Assembly: GCA_963977445.1 (NCBI GenBank)
Contig: CAXBPH010000080.1
Span: 1 to 26,752, forward strand
Direction: 5' to 3'
Source of the DNA: an uncultured bacterium
Lineage (GTDB): Bacteria > Hydrogenedentota > Hydrogenedentia > Hydrogenedentales > JAEUWI01
Length of the DNA stretch: 26,752 bases
Part shown: piece by piece, positions 3,515 through 24,771 of the stretch
Position numbering within the stretch: the first letter of the stretch is position 1
How the letters are laid out: every line of letters begins with the position of its first letter
Notes under the pieces: generated by a model
Told to the model about the DNA's origin: nothing
The model's input: the letters and a program-made list of their open reading frames with translations, nothing else
The model's database searches: none
Position numbers and translations under genes: made by a program

Positions 3515-3676
3515 ATGAATAAAATAACCCGTCGCACCCTCGTTCAAGGAACCGCACAGAGAGCTGCCACCATCAGCGCCGCTGCCCGTGCGAAGAAAAA
3601 TGTAAACGACGACGAGGCGAGCGCCACCCTCTCCAGGGACTATCGCGCGGGCTTCGTCGTCCCGAAAATCGCATAA
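3515..3676 (+). pseudogene. 53-aa in-frame internal-deletion remnant of a Tat-exported Gfo/Idh/MocA oxidoreductase (or a retained mini-protein)
   Basis: MNKITRRTLVQGTAQRAATISAAARAKKNVNDDEASATLSRDYRAGFVVPKIA*. It has a twin-arginine N-terminus. The last 22 aa match the C-terminus of 16712..18004 (DDDANAFLKRDYHPDFVVPTIA) at 14/22. RBS AAGGA upstream and a terminator downstream. Confidence 0.75.
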
Positions 3677-3698
3677 CTATGCGCTGCTACGGAACACC

Positions 3699-3739
3699 AC
3701 AATGGCCGACTTATTGCGAAAAGTCGGCCATTGTTTTTT
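3699..3739 (+). terminator. Rho-independent terminator after the mini-gene
   Basis: ACAATGGCCGACTT (3699-3712) and AAGTCGGCCATTGT (3721-3734) form a perfect 14-bp stem with an 8-nt loop, followed by a T-run. Confidence 0.85.
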
Positions 3740-5616: not shown

Positions 5617-7194
5617 ATGGAAACCGATGCCGTCACCGACGTTACCCAATCTTTCGATGTATGTAATCCGCGAACCGGACAAGCCCTCTACACGATTGAC
5701 GAGCCCAGTCCAGGCGAGCTGACCCAGGCCTTTGATACGGCCCAGGCGGCGTTCCAGCAGCTCCGGTCCATGACCATAAGCCAACGCCTCCTGGAAGTTG
5801 GCAAACTCAAGAATTACATCCAGCAGCACAAAGAAGAGATTGTGCAACGTATCGTCGATGAAACGGGAAAACCCCGCATCGAAGCCCTCATGACCGAAAT
5901 ATTCCCCACCCTCGACCTCATTCAATATTATGAGAAGACGGCGGTAAAAACCCTGCGCGATCAGGCCCAGCCCACACCTCTCGTCATGATGGGCAAGAAA
6001 TCAAAGATCTATTACGAGCCCCTGGGCCCCGTTCTCATTATTTCCCCGTGGAATTACCCCTTCAATCTCTCTATGACTCCGATTATTACGGCCCTCATTG
6101 CCGGGAACTCGGTACTCTTTAAACCCTCGGAACACACCCCCCTTCGCGGATTATTGGAAGAGATTATGAAGGGGTCTGGATTCAACCCGAACTTTGTTCA
6201 GGTTATCTATGGTGCCAAGGAAACGGGCAAGCGATTAATCGACCTCCAACCGGCCAAAATCTTCTTCACCGGAAGCGAGGGCGCCGGCAAAGCCATTATG
6301 GCCCAAGCGGCCCAGTACCTGGTGCCCGTGGAGCTGGAGCTCGGCGGCAAGGACCCCATGGTTGTCTTTGACGATGCTACCTTGTCCCGTGCCGTTCAAG
6401 GGGCACTGTGGGGTGGCATGACCAATTGCGGCCAGACCTGCACGTCGGTAGAGCGAATTTTTGTGCAGGAACCCATCGTTGACGATTTCGTAAACCAGCT
6501 CAATGGCGCGATAGGGGCCCTTGCAACCCAGTCCGGACACGAAGAAACCTCCCACAACAAGGCCCTGGACGTGGGATGCATGACCGCCAGATTCCAAATA
6601 GAAAAAGTAGAAGCCCAGCTGGCCGACGCGGTCAGCAAGGGTGCGAAAGTCCACTGCGGCGGCACACGCACCGACGATTCCAATGCCTTTCCGCCAACGC
6701 TGCTAACCAACATCGATCCCTCCATGGCGATTTATGGCGAAGAAACCTTTGGCCCTGTTGTTACCGTGGTCCCCTTCAAAGACGAAGCCGACGCGATTCG
6801 GCTTGCGAACGACAGTCGCTATGGGCTGAGTGCCAGTGTATGGACCGCTGACGCGGAACGGGCAGACCGGGTCGCCCGTGAAATCATCACCGGGAATGTG
6901 TCCATCAACAACGTCCTCGCTACCCAGGGCAATTCGGCACTACCATTTGGCGGCGCAAAAAGTTCGGGCATGGGCCGCTACAAAGGGGCACACGGGCTCT
7001 ATTCCTTCTCCAATGTAAAATCCATATTGGTGGATAAAAACAGCGCCAAAAAAGAGCCTATCTGGTATCCCTATACCGAGGAAAAATACGGGCTCATTTC
7101 CCAACTGATTGATGCCTCTATCCAGGGCGGAATCGGTGGTCTTATAAAAACGGCGCTGATTGGCATGAAGTTGGACAAATTCACCAAGCCCTGA
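5617..7194 (+). CDS. NAD(P)-dependent aldehyde dehydrogenase
   Basis: Motifs ISPWNYP, FKPSE, FTGS, ELGGKDP (catalytic Glu), NCGQTC (catalytic Cys), EETFGP, PFGG. The start is placed at ATG 5617 behind GGAGA; the ORF is open from 5545. Confidence 0.93.
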   Translation: METDAVTDVTQSFDVCNPRTGQALYTIDEPSPGELTQAFDTAQAAFQQLRSMTISQRLLEVGKLKNYIQQHKEEIVQRIVDETGKPRIEALMTEIFPTLDLIQYYEKTAVKTLRDQAQPTPLVMMGKKSKIYYEPLGPVLIISPWNYPFNLSMTPIITALIAGNSVLFKPSEHTPLRGLLEEIMKGSGFNPNFVQVIYGAKETGKRLIDLQPAKIFFTGSEGAGKAIMAQAAQYLVPVELELGGKDPMVVFDDATLSRAVQGALWGGMTNCGQTCTSVERIFVQEPIVDDFVNQLNGAIGALATQSGHEETSHNKALDVGCMTARFQIEKVEAQLADAVSKGAKVHCGGTRTDDSNAFPPTLLTNIDPSMAIYGEETFGPVVTVVPFKDEADAIRLANDSRYGLSASVWTADAERADRVAREIITGNVSINNVLATQGNSALPFGGAKSSGMGRYKGAHGLYSFSNVKSILVDKNSAKKEPIWYPYTEEKYGLISQLIDASIQGGIGGLIKTALIGMKLDKFTKP

Positions 7195-18223: not shown

Positions 18224-18386
18224 TTTCGCGGTATCGCGATGGTCGTGGTGTGTCCACCGCGTACCATCCTCCGCACACCTTAGGCGCTGATAGCCATCTG
18301 TATATTTGGCGGGACCGTTGGGCCCCGATTCAGTCAGAAGGCGGGGCGGTGGACTCCTTTGCGCCACACAAGACAGGTAATCCTTG

Positions 18387-20348
18387 ATGACTGAACCGTC
18401 GGCACCGAATACAGCTACGACCACGCTTGGGGACGACGAAGGTCAACTCCGACCGGAGCTACGTGGTACTGGATTTCTGCGCCAGTTGCCTGCCGCTCGG
18501 TTGGGCCTGCTCCTCGCGGCCGTCGGCATGCTCCTTTCCCTGCCTGCCCTCTGGTCCGGCTTTGCACAAGACGACTATTTCTTTCTCATGGTTTTCAAGG
18601 GACACCCCGGCCTGGACGTGCTGGATCAAACCCCGCTGGAAACATTTTCCTTCTCCAAGGGCGAAATCGAACTCCAGAACGAACTCACAGAACGTGGTCT
18701 GTTTCCCTGGTGGGTCGTCGATGGCTGGAAGGTAAATTTCTGGCGTCCCGTTTCTTCGCTCAGCAACTGGTTGGACTTTCGCCTGTTTGGCGAATCGCCC
18801 TGGCCCATGCACGTGCACAGCCTCCTCCTATATGGGCTGCTAATAGCAACCGCCACGATCATGTACCGCCGATTCATTCCTTCACCCTATGCTGCTGGGC
18901 TGGCGGGGCTTCTTTTTGCCATAGATTCCGGACACGCCATCCCGGTGACCTGGCTGTCGATGCGCAATGCCTTGCTCACCCTGATTTTCGGCCTCCTGGT
19001 GCTCTACGCCCATGATCGCTGGCGGAAGGCGCAAGTACACGGCGGAACGTTTCGTGCCTGGCTGCCCCATGGCCCCCTCGCACTTCTGTGGCTCGCCCTG
19101 GGACTGTTATCCGGCGAATCGGCCGTCGCGGTCGGGGGCTATCTCTTTGCCTACGCCCTATTTCTGGATCCCGCCACGACTTCGAGTTCATCCCGCAACG
19201 GATTGCGCCCTTACCTTTCCAGTATCGCTGCGTTGCTTCCCTATCTCGTCGTTGTCATCCTCTGGAGAGCGGTGTACTCCGGCCTGGGCTATGGAACGGA
19301 AGGGTCGGGACTCTATGTGGACCCCGTCACAAACGCAGGCGAATTTCTGGAACGACTTCCGGCGCACATGCTTGTGCTCTTACTCGGTGTTTTTGCCCTG
19401 CCCGATGCGGGCTTGTGGGGCCTGATGCCCTCCCCTTGGAACCAAGTCCACCTCGTAGGCGCGGTCCTCTTTCTGGCCGCAGGTACCTGGGTAATTTTCC
19501 CCCTGTTGCGCCAACGGGCCGAAGCACGCTTCCTGCTGACCGGTGCCCTTCTCGCCGTCGTCCCGGCCTGCGCGACTTTGCCCATGGACCGTCTCATGAC
19601 CTTCTCGTCTTTTGGTGCCCTGGGCCTGGTCGCCTTGATTCTGGTCGATATCCGAGAGAAGGGCACCATTCGAATCAAGCGACCACGTTGGCTCATTCGC
19701 GTGCTCGCTATCGTGTTGATTGTGGCGAATCTCGTGGTAGCACCGGCGGGCCTCCTCACGGGAACCCAACAAATCACGATGATGAACCGTATTCTGACCG
19801 ATTCCAATCCCTCCATCCCCACGGACCTGCCCGAATCAACCCGCATTGTCGCCTTGAACACCCCCATTGATCTCCTCGGCTCCAGCCTGCCCATCTATCG
19901 CTCTGCCCGCAACGAACCCGTCCCCCGTCACTGGTGGTGGCTCTATTCGGGCGTCCAGGAAATCGATGTGGAACGTATCGGCACACAAACGCTCGTGCTC
20001 CGACCCGAGGGTGGCTACCACCTGCCACCCTGGTCAGATATCTTTCGCTTTTCAGCGACACACCCCATGGAGCCCGGGCAAACTTTCGCTCTGGACGGCG
20101 TGACCATCACCGTATTGAAGATTGCGGAGGATGGACGGCCCACCGAGGTGCAATTCAAGTTTGATGCCCCACTGGAAGACCCGTCGTATTACTTCGTCAC
20201 CTGGCAGGACGGCAACTACGTCCCCTTTACCTTGCCGGCACCCGGAGCGACGACGAAACTCCCGGACATTCAACTCAGTGAACTACTTCCTGTCGCCTTC
20301 GGTTGGAACGCCGCGGGCGCAGGTCCCAAGAAGGTAGCGGCCCACTAA
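18387..20348 (+). CDS. Polytopic membrane protein, GT-C fold glycosyltransferase-like (TMTC/ArnT/PMT-like), paralog A
   Basis: An acidic DD motif follows TM1 (SGFAQDDY), then FWRPVSS, H.HS..LY, H..PV.W...RN, GE.A, many TM helices and a soluble C-terminal domain. Confidence 0.65.
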   Translation: MTEPSAPNTATTTLGDDEGQLRPELRGTGFLRQLPAARLGLLLAAVGMLLSLPALWSGFAQDDYFFLMVFKGHPGLDVLDQTPLETFSFSKGEIELQNELTERGLFPWWVVDGWKVNFWRPVSSLSNWLDFRLFGESPWPMHVHSLLLYGLLIATATIMYRRFIPSPYAAGLAGLLFAIDSGHAIPVTWLSMRNALLTLIFGLLVLYAHDRWRKAQVHGGTFRAWLPHGPLALLWLALGLLSGESAVAVGGYLFAYALFLDPATTSSSSRNGLRPYLSSIAALLPYLVVVILWRAVYSGLGYGTEGSGLYVDPVTNAGEFLERLPAHMLVLLLGVFALPDAGLWGLMPSPWNQVHLVGAVLFLAAGTWVIFPLLRQRAEARFLLTGALLAVVPACATLPMDRLMTFSSFGALGLVALILVDIREKGTIRIKRPRWLIRVLAIVLIVANLVVAPAGLLTGTQQITMMNRILTDSNPSIPTDLPESTRIVALNTPIDLLGSSLPIYRSARNEPVPRHWWWLYSGVQEIDVERIGTQTLVLRPEGGYHLPPWSDIFRFSATHPMEPGQTFALDGVTITVLKIAEDGRPTEVQFKFDAPLEDPSYYFVTWQDGNYVPFTLPAPGATTKLPDIQLSELLPVAFGWNAAGAGPKKVAAH

Positions 20349-22174
20349 AAGGGTAAGCGCTTCTTGAGGTGCTCCCACGTGAAGTAACCGTCTTCGGGCG
20401 TCAAGATCAGGGGGGTGCCAATGGGCGGCCAGGTTACCACCCGCAACTGCCCCTCTTTCCAGGCGAGGAAACGGTACTGACTGCTCTCCAGCGCGTCGGG
20501 AAACGCCACGGAAAATCGCGTAGGGCCCCATTCCCCGATTTCCAGGATCTCGATTACATACCCCCCACGTTCAATCTGATCCCCTATAGCGTAAGGAAAC
20601 GAACGGCTTCGCAGCAGTTGTTCAAAGGACGTCGAAAGCAGCTCCCCGTCCACGATCTCTACCTCAAACCGGTTCTCGTGGGTGCGGGTAACGCGATGGG
20701 TCGCTGGGGCCACGGAAAGATTCTGCCACCCCTTCGGGGAGGGGTATCCAAAAAAATCCCTTCGAATCAGACTGTAAAAGCCCGTGTAGGGATCCGGCGC
20801 ATACAGGCTGAATATCAATTCGTCGCCGGCCGTATCATCATCGATTTCCATCGTATGGAAGGCATCATTGCTCAGGTAGGTGAAGGCGGGAAAGGCCAGG
20901 CTGTTGCCCACCCAGAAGAGGGGCATGAGGACAAGGTGCAACACGACAAACAGGTGAGCCAGCACGACAAGAAGGCGGGATCGCTTTTCTCCATGCCATT
21001 GAAGACCTTGTTGGATAATGAGCGCCGTGACCAACGCGGCTCCCAGTGAAGGCAGTATGAGCAAACGACCAGAAGGAAAGGTCGCCAGGCTGGGCACGGT
21101 GGCCAACAGCGCCCCAACCCCCATCCAGCGCACGTGCCGTCTCGTCGTTTTATCCATGTTGGACCAGAGTTTCACCAGCGCCCAAATCAGGACACCGACG
21201 GACAGGAATCCCGCACCGACGACCGGAAGGTACAGGGCGCTGTTCGCCACAGGCAACTCGGGGGGCACGGCAAAGAATTGCGCCCCCACCAACGTGGCAA
21301 GACGCTCCGGAGCCAGCGTTGCGAATGCCGCAAACTCGGTCACCGGATCGACATAGACCCCAGAACCGTAAACCCCATAACCGGCCACTTTGTAATAAAC
21401 CAGGTAGCCACAGGAAACGATACCACCACCCACCAGGGCTTTTACCCGTTGAATAATTCGGTCGTCCCGGGCCAGCAGCTCGTAGGCGATCAGATACCCC
21501 ATGATGCCCAGCGCCGTCTCCCCACCCAACAGCCCTGCCACATAGCCCAGCAACGACAGGGGCAGCCCCGGCTTCCATCCCCGTTCGCGCCACGCCAGGT
21601 GGGCCACCAGCCCCAGCAGCGCAGGCACGGCTGAAACAATGGCATTCCGGTTGGACAGCCACAATACAGGCGGAATATGACCATCGTCCAGTGCATAGAG
21701 AATAAGTACCAGTACCGCCGTCTTCAATGGAAGCAATCTCCGCAGCAGCAGCCAGATGGCCACGATGAGGAGGAGATACCATAACGTGCTATGGAGGTGA
21801 TAGCCCACGGCAGACCGACCAAAGAGGCTATGGTCCAAGGCCATCGTCGCGGACGACAAGGGCCGGAAGAAATGAACTTTGAGCTCAGGAAGGGTGTACC
21901 ACGGTAAGGTCCCCCGATCGATGAGGGGTGCGATGACCTCGGGGTCCCCATTCCCGAAACAAAACAAATCGAAGGTGGAGGTGGGCATGCCCTTCCCCTC
22001 CAGGGTCAACACATGGATGTAGTCGTCCAGCCAGAAACCGGAAAACAGCGCCGGCAGGGTAATCGCCACCGCCAGCACGAGGGCATACCAGGGCGCGCGG
22101 GGGTGGGTACAGAAATTCCGAAGCTTGATGATGAATCTTGAGTACACGTTCCCTGCCTTCTCGCCATACGGCAC
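20345..22174 (-). CDS. Polytopic membrane protein, GT-C fold glycosyltransferase-like, paralog B
   Basis: SGFWLDDY, FFRPLSS, YHLHSTLWY, GHIPPVLWLSNRNA, GGETA and GSGVYVDPVT are colinear with paralog A. The start is uncertain (GTG 22174 or 22147). Confidence 0.65.
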   Translation of the reverse strand: MPYGEKAGNVYSRFIIKLRNFCTHPRAPWYALVLAVAITLPALFSGFWLDDYIHVLTLEGKGMPTSTFDLFCFGNGDPEVIAPLIDRGTLPWYTLPELKVHFFRPLSSATMALDHSLFGRSAVGYHLHSTLWYLLLIVAIWLLLRRLLPLKTAVLVLILYALDDGHIPPVLWLSNRNAIVSAVPALLGLVAHLAWRERGWKPGLPLSLLGYVAGLLGGETALGIMGYLIAYELLARDDRIIQRVKALVGGGIVSCGYLVYYKVAGYGVYGSGVYVDPVTEFAAFATLAPERLATLVGAQFFAVPPELPVANSALYLPVVGAGFLSVGVLIWALVKLWSNMDKTTRRHVRWMGVGALLATVPSLATFPSGRLLILPSLGAALVTALIIQQGLQWHGEKRSRLLVVLAHLFVVLHLVLMPLFWVGNSLAFPAFTYLSNDAFHTMEIDDDTAGDELIFSLYAPDPYTGFYSLIRRDFFGYPSPKGWQNLSVAPATHRVTRTHENRFEVEIVDGELLSTSFEQLLRSRSFPYAIGDQIERGGYVIEILEIGEWGPTRFSVAFPDALESSQYRFLAWKEGQLRVVTWPPIGTPLILTPEDGYFTWEHLKKRLPF

Positions 22175-22183
22175 GTGGTGTTT

Positions 22184-22396
22184 TCATGCAGGGATCTCGA
22201 TTGCCCATGCGTAGCTGCCCCGAATTTTAACACAGGTCTCCGGGCCAATTCTTCGATTCCGGGGGACCCAATTCAAGGGGGTGTAAAAAATGGGGTCACG
22301 ATTTACCAAAAGGAACTCCAGGCGGTGCCACCCGATCGCCCTCGGTATTTCCGGTCGGACACAGCGGAACATGACGTTGACGGAAATCCGTAGCAA
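22184..22396 (-). CDS. Possible 70-aa leader/small ORF behind a perfect Shine-Dalgarno
   Basis: Minus strand AAGGAGGTG (22403-22411), 6 nt, TTG (22396). The frame stays open to TGA at 22184 (MLRISVNVMFRCVRPEIPRAIGWHRLEF...). No recognisable family. Confidence 0.3.
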   Translation of the reverse strand: MLRISVNVMFRCVRPEIPRAIGWHRLEFLLVNRDPIFYTPLNWVPRNRRIGPETCVKIRGSYAWAIEIPA

Positions 22397-22617
22397 TGGA
22401 TGCACCTCCTTCAAAAATCGTTCGGGTGCCTTGACCCGGAAAGTCGGATGACCAGGAAGCACGTCACCGTAGCGTTGTTCACGCTTCCACCCACGTCCAG
22501 CGCGGATAAACAAGGCTACGGTATAGCCCCAATCCAATCCACCAGGACAACCTCGCTCAAGACACCCGAATCCTCCTGCGACGGATCTTCGACCGGGAAT
22601 ACCGGATCGGGTGGCAC
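22325..22617. ncRNA. Candidate structured RNA or fold-back element (unassigned family)
   Basis: Five nested complementary blocks: 22325-37/22605-17 (13/13), 22343-57/22590-604 (14/15), 22386-95/22577-86 (9/10), 22421-34/22557-70 (13/14), 22466-79/22509-22 (13/14). Confidence 0.5.
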
Positions 22618-22670
22618 GATGTTTCTCCTGAAGCAGGCCAACAAACTCAATAATCAATCCAAAAACAATT

Positions 22671-23085
22671 GGTTCTTCGTCGATTTGCGGGAATGGTTTG
22701 ATAGATTCATGGAGCGAACGGCGGTATCCCAACACGTTTACTTACCCAAAGGATGATTCGGCGCCCCAAAGGGGCAATGCAGCATAGTCCGCCGCGGCGG
22801 ACAACGCCCAGGGAGTCAGGAATGCTCAATAGTACAAGCCCTGAAAGGGCGGCACAGCCCGATTCGTCACGTTGAACAGCGCGCCGAAAAACGAAGTCAA
22901 CCGTCGCAATCGTCTTTCTGCGTCGCCCATTCAGGGCTACTGGATGGGGCCACGGGGTCTCAGGGCGTTGCCCTGAACTATGCTGCGCTGGCCCTTCGGG
23001 CCGAATAAATAGCCTTCGCGGTGTGCTTGGGCCAGGCTCGGAGCAACGCAAAACACGGACGGGTCCCGTAAATCGACGAAGAACC
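22671..23085. mobile_element. Non-autonomous MITE, 415 bp, with 22-bp TIRs and a 7-bp target-site duplication
   Basis: GGTTCTTCGTCGATTTGCGGGA (22671-22692) versus the reverse complement of TCCCGTAAATCGACGAAGAACC (23064-23085), 21/22 identical. Flanked by the direct repeat AACAATT (22664-22670 and 23086-23092). No transposase ORF. Confidence 0.8.
22756..23006. repeat. REP-like inverted doublet (REPIN-like) inside the MITE
   Basis: AGCCCTGAAAGGGCGGCACAG (22837-57) / CTGCGTCGCCCATTCAGGGCT (22918-38), 18/21. CAACGCCC / GGGCGTTG. GCAGCATAGT / ACTATGCTGC. Outer GCCCCAAAGGGGC and GGCCCTTCGGGCC hairpins. Confidence 0.75.
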
Positions 23086-23202
23086 AACAATTTGTGGCAC
23101 TGGAACCCTGATACCAGGCTCTATGCAGGCTCACTGGTCGCGACGGAACGTGCCAACATGCCATAATACCCGTTTGAGCACAACCTCCTTGGAAAGAACC
23201 GG

Positions 23203-23943
23203 ATGGGCGAATCAGAAACGAGCTACGGTGGCGGCATTGTCACCGAACGGGGCCTGCGCACCATGTCACGCTGGGGCTTCATCATCATGGCGGTCTGGGC
23301 GGTCTTCCTGCTCACCTGGGGCTTCCTGTGGCCCGAGCCCTATGCACACGGCTGGTGGCTCGTATTGGAACTCTTCGCCGTAGGACGCACCGTCTGTGCC
23401 TACGAGGGCGTACGCCTCGGTTTCAGCAATTTCTACCTCCTGGTGCAGGGGGGCGCACAAGATATTGGCATTTTTTTCCTGGTTTTCCCCTGGATTGTGC
23501 GATTTTACGCGCGGGTTTCCCATGTTGGCCTCGTCGACCGCATTTTGGGGAGCGTCACCCGGGCCGCCGAACGCCATCGCGAGCGACTCCGGGGTTATGG
23601 TGCCGTTGGCCTCTATCTCTTCGTATTCTTCCCCGTATCCGGCACCGGAACCCTCGTCGGGTGTGTCGTCGGCTACCTCCTGGGCATGCCCATGCGCCAG
23701 GCCGTACCAATTGTCATCGCCGGACACCTCTCCTGCCTCGTATTCTTGTTGGCCTTTTTCGACTGGCTCGAACCCGTGCTCTCGTCGGTCAACGAGGGCC
23801 TCGGCCAGTATTTCGCCTGGATTTTTCTCATTATTCTCCTCGCAGGGGGCTGGCTCTATGGCAAAATAAGGCAACGTTATGGCCGAAAAGAAGAAGCGAC
23901 GGACTTTATGGAAAACGAGGACGTGGTCGAGGCGAGCGAATAG
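23203..23943 (+). CDS. Small multi-drug export-type membrane protein (COG2426-like)
   Basis: 246 aa, about 6 TM segments, with the signature YGAVGLYLFVFFPVSGTGTLVGCVVGYLLGM. Confidence 0.7.
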   Translation: MGESETSYGGGIVTERGLRTMSRWGFIIMAVWAVFLLTWGFLWPEPYAHGWWLVLELFAVGRTVCAYEGVRLGFSNFYLLVQGGAQDIGIFFLVFPWIVRFYARVSHVGLVDRILGSVTRAAERHRERLRGYGAVGLYLFVFFPVSGTGTLVGCVVGYLLGMPMRQAVPIVIAGHLSCLVFLLAFFDWLEPVLSSVNEGLGQYFAWIFLIILLAGGWLYGKIRQRYGRKEEATDFMENEDVVEASE

Positions 23944-24005
23944 CTTCACCCTACCTGAATCCCGACCGGCACACCCCGCAATGCCTGCACCAACGACGTC
24001 CTCTG

Positions 24006-24014
24006 TGATACAAT
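24006..24014 (+). promoter_or_regulatory. Candidate extended -10 promoter for the GT2 gene
   Basis: TG-A-TACAAT lies about 20 nt before the AAGGAG RBS. It overlaps the ORF-track ATG at 24013, which favours GTG 24046 as the true start. Confidence 0.4.
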
Positions 24015-24045
24015 GGGCCGAATTGGACAGCAAAAGGAGCCTTCC

Positions 24046-24771
24046 GTGGACTGCATTTTTTCGGTCATAATCCCTGCCTATAATGAGGAAAAATACCTCC
24101 CGGGTACCATCGGCGCTATCCGCAAGGCGGAAGAGGCCTTCGGAAAGCCCGTGGAAGTCGTCGTCGGTGACAACATGAGCACCGACAAGACCGCCGACGT
24201 AGCCCGTGAACTGGGTGCCAAAGTCGTCACCGTTACGAAACGCAATATTTCCGCTGTCCGCAATGGTGCCGCCGCCGCTGCTACGGGGAAGTATCTCGTA
24301 TTCTGTGACGCCGACGACACGATTTCAGAAAACATGTTCATAGAAATCCTTCGGCACATGGAGACGGGCCGCTACGTGGGTGGTGGCACGACCGACACCC
24401 GCTATGACCGGAAGTCCCTCGGTCTCTTTATGACCCATCATGTAATTCTCAAGACGTCTCTCCGTCTCTCCCGCCTTTCCATGTTTCTGTTTTACACGTC
24501 CCACGAAGATTATGACGCGATTGGCGGTTTCAACGAGGAATTCCTCGCCGCCGAAGATACGGATTTTGCGTTGCGTTTGAGGAAGCATGGGAAGACGACT
24601 GGCAGGGCCTATTGCAATCTCAAGACGGCCTACCTGGTGAAGTCTGCCCGCAAATTTGATGAATACGGTGATTGGGCCGTCTTTCGCCACCCCATCACCT
24701 TTATACGGGCTTCCCTTCGTGATCCGAAAGTCGTTCATGAGTTGTGGTACAAGCCCCGCCGGGATTCCTGA
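24046..24771 (+). CDS. GT2 family glycosyltransferase (GT-A fold)
   Basis: FSVIIPAYNEE, VVGDNMSTDKT, RNGAA, FCDAD (DxD), GGFNE..AAEDTDF, SARKF. AAGGAG RBS before the GTG. Confidence 0.9.
   Translation: MDCIFSVIIPAYNEEKYLPGTIGAIRKAEEAFGKPVEVVVGDNMSTDKTADVARELGAKVVTVTKRNISAVRNGAAAAATGKYLVFCDADDTISENMFIEILRHMETGRYVGGGTTDTRYDRKSLGLFMTHHVILKTSLRLSRLSMFLFYTSHEDYDAIGGFNEEFLAAEDTDFALRLRKHGKTTGRAYCNLKTAYLVKSARKFDEYGDWAVFRHPITFIRASLRDPKVVHELWYKPRRDS

Follow-up and report, generated by a model that had tools for sequence, protein, structure and literature searches.

The intergenic region between a gene for a GT-C-fold glycosyltransferase and a divergently oriented gene of the Sm_multidrug_ex family contains a genuine imperfect, nested fold-back of 293 nt (element 1, positions 22325-22617 of the window, i.e., of the whole 26,752-nt stretch of DNA that was analyzed), in which 65 of the 71 pairs over five blocks are Watson-Crick according to a repeat finder and our own pair count. 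Element 1 looks more like a leftover of small mobile or palindromic DNA than like a new regulatory RNA, and we tentatively interpret it as an old MITE-like or palindromic DNA insertion. This reading is based on the presence, in the same gap, of another fold-back with an apparent target duplication, on the excessive length of the gap combined with its contrast in GC content, and on the lack of any signal specific to an RNA; against it stand the absence of a target duplication and of AT-richness in element 1 itself and of a second copy in the sequences searched.

Architecture of the fold-back

Element 1 consists of the following parts:

22325..22617, strand unspecified: element 1, in which extended terminal inverted repeats (H1-H4) enclose a 122-nt core
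22325..22434: left arm, 110 nt, containing the left halves of H1-H4 and broken by insertions of 5, 23 and 25 nt
22557..22617: right arm, 61 nt, contiguous, containing the right halves of H4, H3, H2 and H1
22435..22556: core, 122 nt, not palindromic as a whole, with non-complementary flanks of 31 nt and 34 nt around H5
22325-22337 with 22605-22617: helix H1, 13/13
22343-22357 with 22590-22604: helix H2, 14/15 Watson-Crick and one G.T
22381-22395 with 22577-22591: helix H3, 12/15
22421-22434 with 22557-22570: helix H4, 13/14
22466-22479 with 22509-22522: helix H5, 13/14 with a 29-nt loop, the core's own hairpin
22403..22431, strand unspecified: segment CCTCC-TTCAAAAATCG-TTCGGGTGCC, which on the minus (GT-C sense) strand gives, in this order, a hairpin base, a five-U run and AAGGAGG

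The terminal repeats are about 60 bp long; the outermost 13 of 13 positions are perfectly complementary, 28 of 33 positions match when the repeat is extended, and more blocks follow inward. An earlier note on this DNA, made by inspection of the sequence, placed the five nested complementary blocks correctly and gave helix 3 as 9/10, which is indeed the core of the fuller H3. The near-contiguity of the right arm likewise holds; the left-arm interruptions, put there at 5, ~28 and ~25 nt, measure 5, 23 and 25 nt, the discrepancy stemming from the start point chosen for helix 3. Equally borne out are the 31/34-nt bubble between H4 and H5, the direct copies of ACCAGGA at 22451 and 22541, one in each core flank, and the small hairpin GGCTACGGTATAGCC at 22514-22528, which is a competitor of H5. 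The motif CACCCGA occurs four times inside element 1, in alternating orientation, and is common to H1 and H4, so that alternative pairings exist. The segment at 22403-22431 is the only part of element 1 that resembles the fold-back located upstream of the GT-C gene in the related locus L001 (see below).

The two arms of the bubble show no residual complementarity (global score of -10, compared to a shuffle mean of -9.1 with a standard deviation of 2.6; 69% of 2000 shuffles equal it), whereas the helices beside the bubble are about 92% paired, so that element 1 is not an evenly decayed perfect palindrome. The inference in the earlier note that this looks like a selected RNA structure rather than a simple inverted duplication is supported in its second half, inasmuch as a uniformly decayed duplication does not account for the element; its first half, selection at the RNA level, has found no support so far. 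The layout as such fits both a MITE and a selected RNA with an internal loop. The wobble pairs, previously thought to weakly favor the minus strand through the balance of G.U against A.C mismatches, do not do so: the six non-Watson-Crick positions comprise two G.U on the plus strand, two G.U on the minus strand, one A/G and one G/G. There is accordingly no strand preference, and the tie fits divergence at the DNA level, although six positions are few.

The predicted fold is strong on both strands. On the plus strand, the RNA fold has an energy of -119.8 kcal/mol (z -5.53) and on the minus strand, -136.1 kcal/mol (z -4.93); with DNA parameters, the z-score is -5.11, and in each of the three cases, none of 200 shuffles is as good (dinucleotide shuffles for both RNA folds). 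The inner hairpin alone (22421-22570, minus strand) has a z-score of -4.3. Compared to the 662 windows of 293 nt into which the analyzed stretch can be cut in 40-nt steps, element 1 lies about 2.5 standard deviations under the mean on the plus strand and about 3.5 on the minus strand; the closest of these windows ranks 5th of 662 on the minus strand after GC correction and falls outside the top 12 on the plus strand. Similar scores are obtained for parts of the second fold-back, for a stretch near 3521 and for a stretch within the GT-C gene. Element 1 is therefore an outlier among the segments of its own window, yet not unique.

The intergenic gap and its second fold-back

The neighborhood of element 1 contains the following features:

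20345..22174, minus strand: gene for a GT-C-fold glycosyltransferase, with a weak match to PMT_2
22664..23092, strand unspecified: element 2, a second fold-back (22671-23085) with flanking direct repeats
23203..23943, plus strand: gene of the Sm_multidrug_ex family, divergent from the GT-C gene
24013-24771: gene for a GT2 glycosyltransferase, following the Sm_multidrug_ex gene

The start of the database version of the GT-C protein (P0001, 600 aa) corresponds to the GTG at 22147. Between element 1 and the start of the gene, which lies downstream of it, there are 150-177 nt. The stretch 20345-24771, with the GT-C protein, the small-exporter-like Sm_multidrug_ex protein and the GT2 enzyme, presumably resembles three-component periplasmic glycosylation systems. 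The gap that hosts element 1 spans 1028 nt and is the longest of the 15 that separate the 16 ORFs treated as genes, ahead of gaps of 567 and 379 nt. With both fold-backs subtracted, 306 nt are left, with a GC content of 0.513, compared to 0.577 in element 1, 0.581 in element 2 and 0.564 in the entire window. An estimate of upstream gaps derived from ORFs of at least 120 aa was discarded; a spurious 183-aa ORF (see below) would make the gap in the window 9 nt long.

The inverted ends of element 2 (22671-92 and 23064-85) share an 18/18 core and extend to 34-nt arms at 85%, with nested inner helices; the RNAfold z-score is -6.5. The heptamer AACAATT flanks element 2 exactly at both ends (22664-70 and 23086-92), which looks like a 7-bp target duplication, and element 2 shows the typical traits of a MITE of fairly recent origin. 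The sequences of elements 1 and 2 are unrelated, which rules out kinship between the two. The combination of inverted ends and a 7-bp direct repeat at both ends of element 2 marks this gap as a landing site for elements of this kind.

The gap also holds three of the five GTGSCAC sites of the window, at 22325, 22611 and 23094, that is, at both ends of element 1 and 1 nt past the right direct repeat of element 2; this motif may be a protein-binding site or may recur by chance. On the other side of the GT-C gene, a 654-aa ORF (18384-20348, plus strand) without a Pfam match is a paralog of the GT-C protein and matches the same places as the latter in all 60 related loci described below, with 26-36% identity; this ORF and the GT-C gene are convergent, with an overlap of 4 nt where they meet.

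Coding potential, RNA families and relatives

The 183-aa ORF on the minus strand (22184-22735) spans the whole of element 1 and shares its frame with the GT-C ORF, from which one TGA separates it, an arrangement that is taken as chance. Its codon score is 0.043, compared to 0.20-0.50 for 15 genes of the window, and the 72-codon part that follows AAGGAGG has a score of -0.008, below which only 1.7% of the in-frame windows from genes fall. Neither this ORF nor a 118-aa ORF on the plus strand (22400-22756) has a match in Pfam. No relative of the 183-aa ORF is found in a collection of 5.8 billion clustered proteins, searched from 100 to 321 aa, or, at any length, among 1.84 billion representatives, and none of the 118-aa ORF in the 5.8-billion-protein collection within the length band searched. 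The frames crossing element 1 look non-coding, and on the codon scores together with the lack of Pfam matches and of protein relatives, a protein-coding gene across it is rejected. The ORFs of 40-53 aa that lie within or overlap element 1 are charged and polar, judging by eye; there is no small hydrophobic ORF among the 15 listed ORFs of at least 40 aa in this region, which speaks against the suggestion of an mRNA resembling those of type I toxins.

A search of the whole window against Rfam, with OLE and HEARO among the families covered, yields no match at the gathering score, and with the threshold relaxed to E<=10, the region 22100-23250 gives four chance-level matches, all far below the gathering score and none to 6S RNA, tmRNA, RNase P, SRP or a riboswitch; ARAGORN detects no tRNA or tmRNA. 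On these negatives, a known RNA family is rejected for element 1; the earlier note likewise recognized none of these families by eye, and its proposal of a 6S-like RNA receives no support. A 6S RNA is about 180-200 nt long; element 1 shares with it and with similar Rfam families a long closing stem and a large, near-symmetric internal loop (31/34 nt) but is longer, at 293 nt. No sigma-70-like promoter is detected in 22000-23300, which includes element 1. A consensus scan of the region reports five weak terminator-like sites against 1.4 expected from shuffles. On the minus strand, the H4/H5 hairpin is followed by CGAUUUUUG, with five U after a 2-nt gap, and the scan flags just a 5-pair local hairpin there.

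Copies and relatives were sought in several collections. There is no second copy of element 1 within the 26.7-kb window. An alignment of 39 GT-C proteins led to 60 related loci with 835,303 nt in total, in which blastn and nhmmer searches with the gap and both elements give no match or chance-level matches only; no homolog suited to a count of covariation, as the earlier note had hoped to obtain by BLASTN, emerges from these loci or from the collections below. Element 1 has no match in the plasmid and phage collections, and searches of translated and protein collections return no relative of it. When six 8-residue seeds taken from the translated element 1 are run against 185,579 GTDB species-representative genomes, 594 stretches match and none is confirmed; the window itself is not returned, which places its source genome outside that collection. 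The nearest relatives of the GT-C protein are at most 52% identical to it, the named ones among the closest being from Hydrogenedentota and a few more distant ones being labeled Myxococcaceae; the source organism probably belongs to Hydrogenedentota. The Sm_multidrug_ex neighbor is missing from all 60 related loci, conservation of the gene order is absent, and a GT2 gene near a GT-C homolog is seen in one of them only (L008), as a weak match about 3.8 kb away. With identity of at most 52% and different neighbors, the synteny comparison with these loci is of no use. In a census of fold-backs detectable by blast, ten such structures are found in nine of the 60 loci, in addition to element 2; element 1 is below that criterion.

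A fold-back also precedes the GT-C gene of a related locus. The locus L001, from a metagenome-assembled genome of Hydrogenedentota, encodes the closest relative of the GT-C protein (52% identity) and contains a fold-back of 152 nt (5815-5966), a near-perfect hairpin with 51-nt arms that ends 16 nt before the GT-C ATG, with z-scores of -6.1 and -7.0 and no match in Rfam. The base of the hairpin carries an A run and a T run, and a Shine-Dalgarno-like GAGAGG is part of its outermost pairs. Like element 1, it is a strong, long hairpin, here upstream of the closest homolog of the same gene; the motif TCGGGTGCC/GGCACCCGA at the stem base is common to both, and downstream of each on the GT-C sense strand come a U run and a purine-rich stretch. 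The two differ in length (152 compared to 293 nt), in the near-perfection of the L001 hairpin and in the distance from the start codon (16 compared to 150-177 nt), and outside the stem base, their interiors cannot be aligned. The 11-mer GTG[CG]CACCCGA has five exact matches in 862,055 nt, two in the arms of the L001 fold-back, two in the arms of element 1 and one in L027; the motif matches at L027:9609 and L001:805 are not in palindromes. A 25-column local match between the two fold-backs, around TCAAAAA..CG..TCGGGTGCC, is equaled by 0.83% of 2995 random 159-nt segments, a similarity that is not significant after correction, given that 25 upstream regions were compared.

A covariance model built from the L001 fold-back gives 19 matches at E<=10 with default filters, none of them in the window; with filters off, there are 25 matches in the window, of which none overlaps 22325-22617 and the best reaches 13.1 bits at 417-469. 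The same model matches a GC-rich 121-nt hairpin in L043 (15381-15501) with 44 bits (E 4.7e-10), which probably reflects the generic likeness of long hairpins rather than homology. For homology between element 1 and the L001 fold-back, the motif and the local match are suggestive, and neither the alignment nor the covariance model lends support. Within 1.2 kb upstream of the GT-C gene, a large inverted repeat is present in one of 21 relatives, namely L001. Among the 200-nt segments immediately upstream of the gene in 25 relatives, one has a z-score of -7.0 and two have z-scores of -3.7 and -2.3, and the remaining 22 range from -1.84 to +1.51. Across this GT-C family, a structured leader is not conserved, contrary to what a cis-regulatory leader, another suggestion of the earlier note, would lead one to expect.

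Possible origins of element 1

In one account of MITEs (PMC10969869), these elements are described as shorter than 500 bp, with terminal repeats, a core and stable stem-loop transcripts, and as typically AT-rich; according to the same account, their direct repeats fade with age and their copy number can be as low as one. Element 1 resembles prokaryotic MITEs, such as QMITE2 and ERIC, in being shorter than 500 bp and intergenic, in its terminal inverted repeats surrounding a core and its stable stem-loop, and in the absence of an ORF of its own, let alone a transposase gene, in its 293 nt with non-coding frames. It differs from MITEs in that no second copy is seen in the sequences searched and that no direct repeat of at least 5 nt is present at the junctions (GATCG and CAGGC occur near the ends but off the junctions); furthermore, it is not AT-rich, as the GC values given above indicate. 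In QMITE2 of Coxiella, the direct repeats are 7-9 bp, the terminal repeats 23-29 bp and the core 113-145 bp. The terminal repeats of element 1 are about twice the usual length, and it is unusual for a MITE that one of two ~60-bp repeats is broken by 5, 23 and 25 nt. The four copies of CACCCGA in alternating orientation are somewhat reminiscent of the clustered units of REP, REPIN and BIME elements. REPs are units of 20-40 nt that are present across many intergenic regions; in contrast, the extended motif of element 1 occurs nowhere else in the 26.7-kb window, and no RAYT-like gene is seen.

Under the interpretation that we tentatively prefer, element 1 would be a non-coding inverted-repeat element at the DNA level and not a gene dedicated to an RNA. 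Most likely, it would be a non-autonomous transposon of MITE type, now old and decayed, or else a palindromic repeat of a related sort. We infer that it was once mobile and was inserted where the GT-C gene and the flippase-like/GT2 operon would have their divergent promoters; its left repeat is broken by three insertions, and the younger, MITE-like element 2 would have landed beside it. The non-coding frames, the lack of an Rfam family and of strand asymmetry, and the absence of element 1 from the 60 related loci also speak for this interpretation. A transcript running across element 1 would be predicted to form a long hairpin, with five U after the inner hairpin on the GT-C sense strand, and it is possible that this combination dampens or ends such transcripts. 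Two further features do not sit easily with a MITE-like origin: the alternation of paired blocks with wholly unpaired segments of similar length is also expected from structural selection, and the L001 fold-back in front of its own GT-C gene counts against this interpretation.

These same features belong to the case for a structured RNA on the minus strand, whether a long 5' leader or attenuator belonging to the GT-C gene or a small RNA in its own right, which we consider unlikely; equally doubtful is the specific arrangement in which the inner hairpin (H4/H5) with the U run serves as the terminator and the outer helices act as a clamp. The strong fold on both strands, including the inner hairpin on the minus strand, is compatible with such an RNA, as are the sequence that follows the minus-strand hairpin, CGAUUUUUGAAGGAGG, the blockwise retention of pairing beside unpaired segments of matching length, and the alternative pairings allowed by CACCCGA in H1 and H4. 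The 152-nt fold-back of L001, positioned 16 nt before the start codon and followed by a U run and the Shine-Dalgarno-like GAGAGG, with its 11-mer and 25-column match in common with element 1, points in the same direction. However, the G.U pairs are tied at 2:2, neither fold-back matches Rfam, element 1 lies 150-177 nt from the start codon with no promoter-like site, and the upstream regions of 22 of the 25 relatives are unstructured, the large inverted repeat being confined to one of 21. Moreover, the two fold-backs cannot be aligned beyond the stem base, the L001 model finds nothing in element 1 under either filter setting and also matches the unrelated GC-rich hairpin of L043, and the 0.8% similarity does not survive the correction for 25 upstream regions. 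Quite improbable, in our estimate, is the further proposal of an RNA of about 290 nt specific to a lineage of Hydrogenedentota, transcribed together with the GT-C gene in a glycosylation locus of three genes, or from just ahead of that gene, with its inner hairpin and U run acting as an attenuator and the L001 fold-back as its diverged counterpart. A local, non-mobile inverted duplication without function, produced, e.g., by template switching in replication, also appears unlikely, and there is similarly little reason to favor its detailed version, in which reverse copying of one arm, about 110 nt long, was followed by the loss or gain of three segments. The aligned blocks are about 92% complementary and differ by six substitutions and three indels, and the lack of a target duplication, of another copy anywhere searched and of strand bias is in line with such an event. 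Against it, the bubble arms have no trace of former complementarity (for a palindrome decayed uniformly to 8.5% divergence, identity of no more than 50% across 31 nt has a probability of about 6e-10), so that the duplication cannot have included the center and H5 needs a separate origin; in addition, the GC content of element 1 is above that of the surrounding intergenic DNA.

A very improbable alternative is an inverton, in which the 13-bp repeats would be recombinase sites and the flipping of 267 bp would alter how the divergent surface-glycan genes are expressed. By definition, an inverton lies between inverted repeats, and such segments often occur close to genes for cell-surface modification, as stated in published work (PMC11892184; 10.1101/2023.10.25.564076; PMC11602134). 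The likeness consists in perfect inverted repeats (13/13, 267 nt apart) around an intergenic segment of a few hundred bp between glycosylation genes, with GTGSCAC at both ends of element 1 and right after element 2. Yet the pairing in element 1 is nested through the whole arms, running inward through H2-H4, which an inversion does not need; no promoter-like site lies inside, and none of the 60 related loci has conserved the gene order. The 22 ORFs scanned within the window contain no transposase or recombinase domain, which also counts against the MITE-like interpretation, and the window has no invertase gene; a recombinase gene elsewhere in the genome is possible.

If element 1 is a decayed fold-back repeat, it matters little in itself, being one more small palindromic insertion in a poorly studied candidate phylum; to our knowledge, there is almost no experimental genetics in Hydrogenedentota. 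It would then serve as a warning that a z-score near -5 and neatly nested helices do not, on their own, indicate an RNA gene. If the RNA reading were true, element 1 would represent a new class of leaders or attenuators controlling periplasmic glycosylation genes.

Elsewhere in the window, within the 567-nt gap, the stretch 3515-3734 contains a 53-aa ORF whose beginning, MNKITRRTLVQG, is by eye similar to a twin-arginine signal; after the ORF come a hairpin of 14 perfectly paired bp (3699-3712 with 3721-3734) and a T run.
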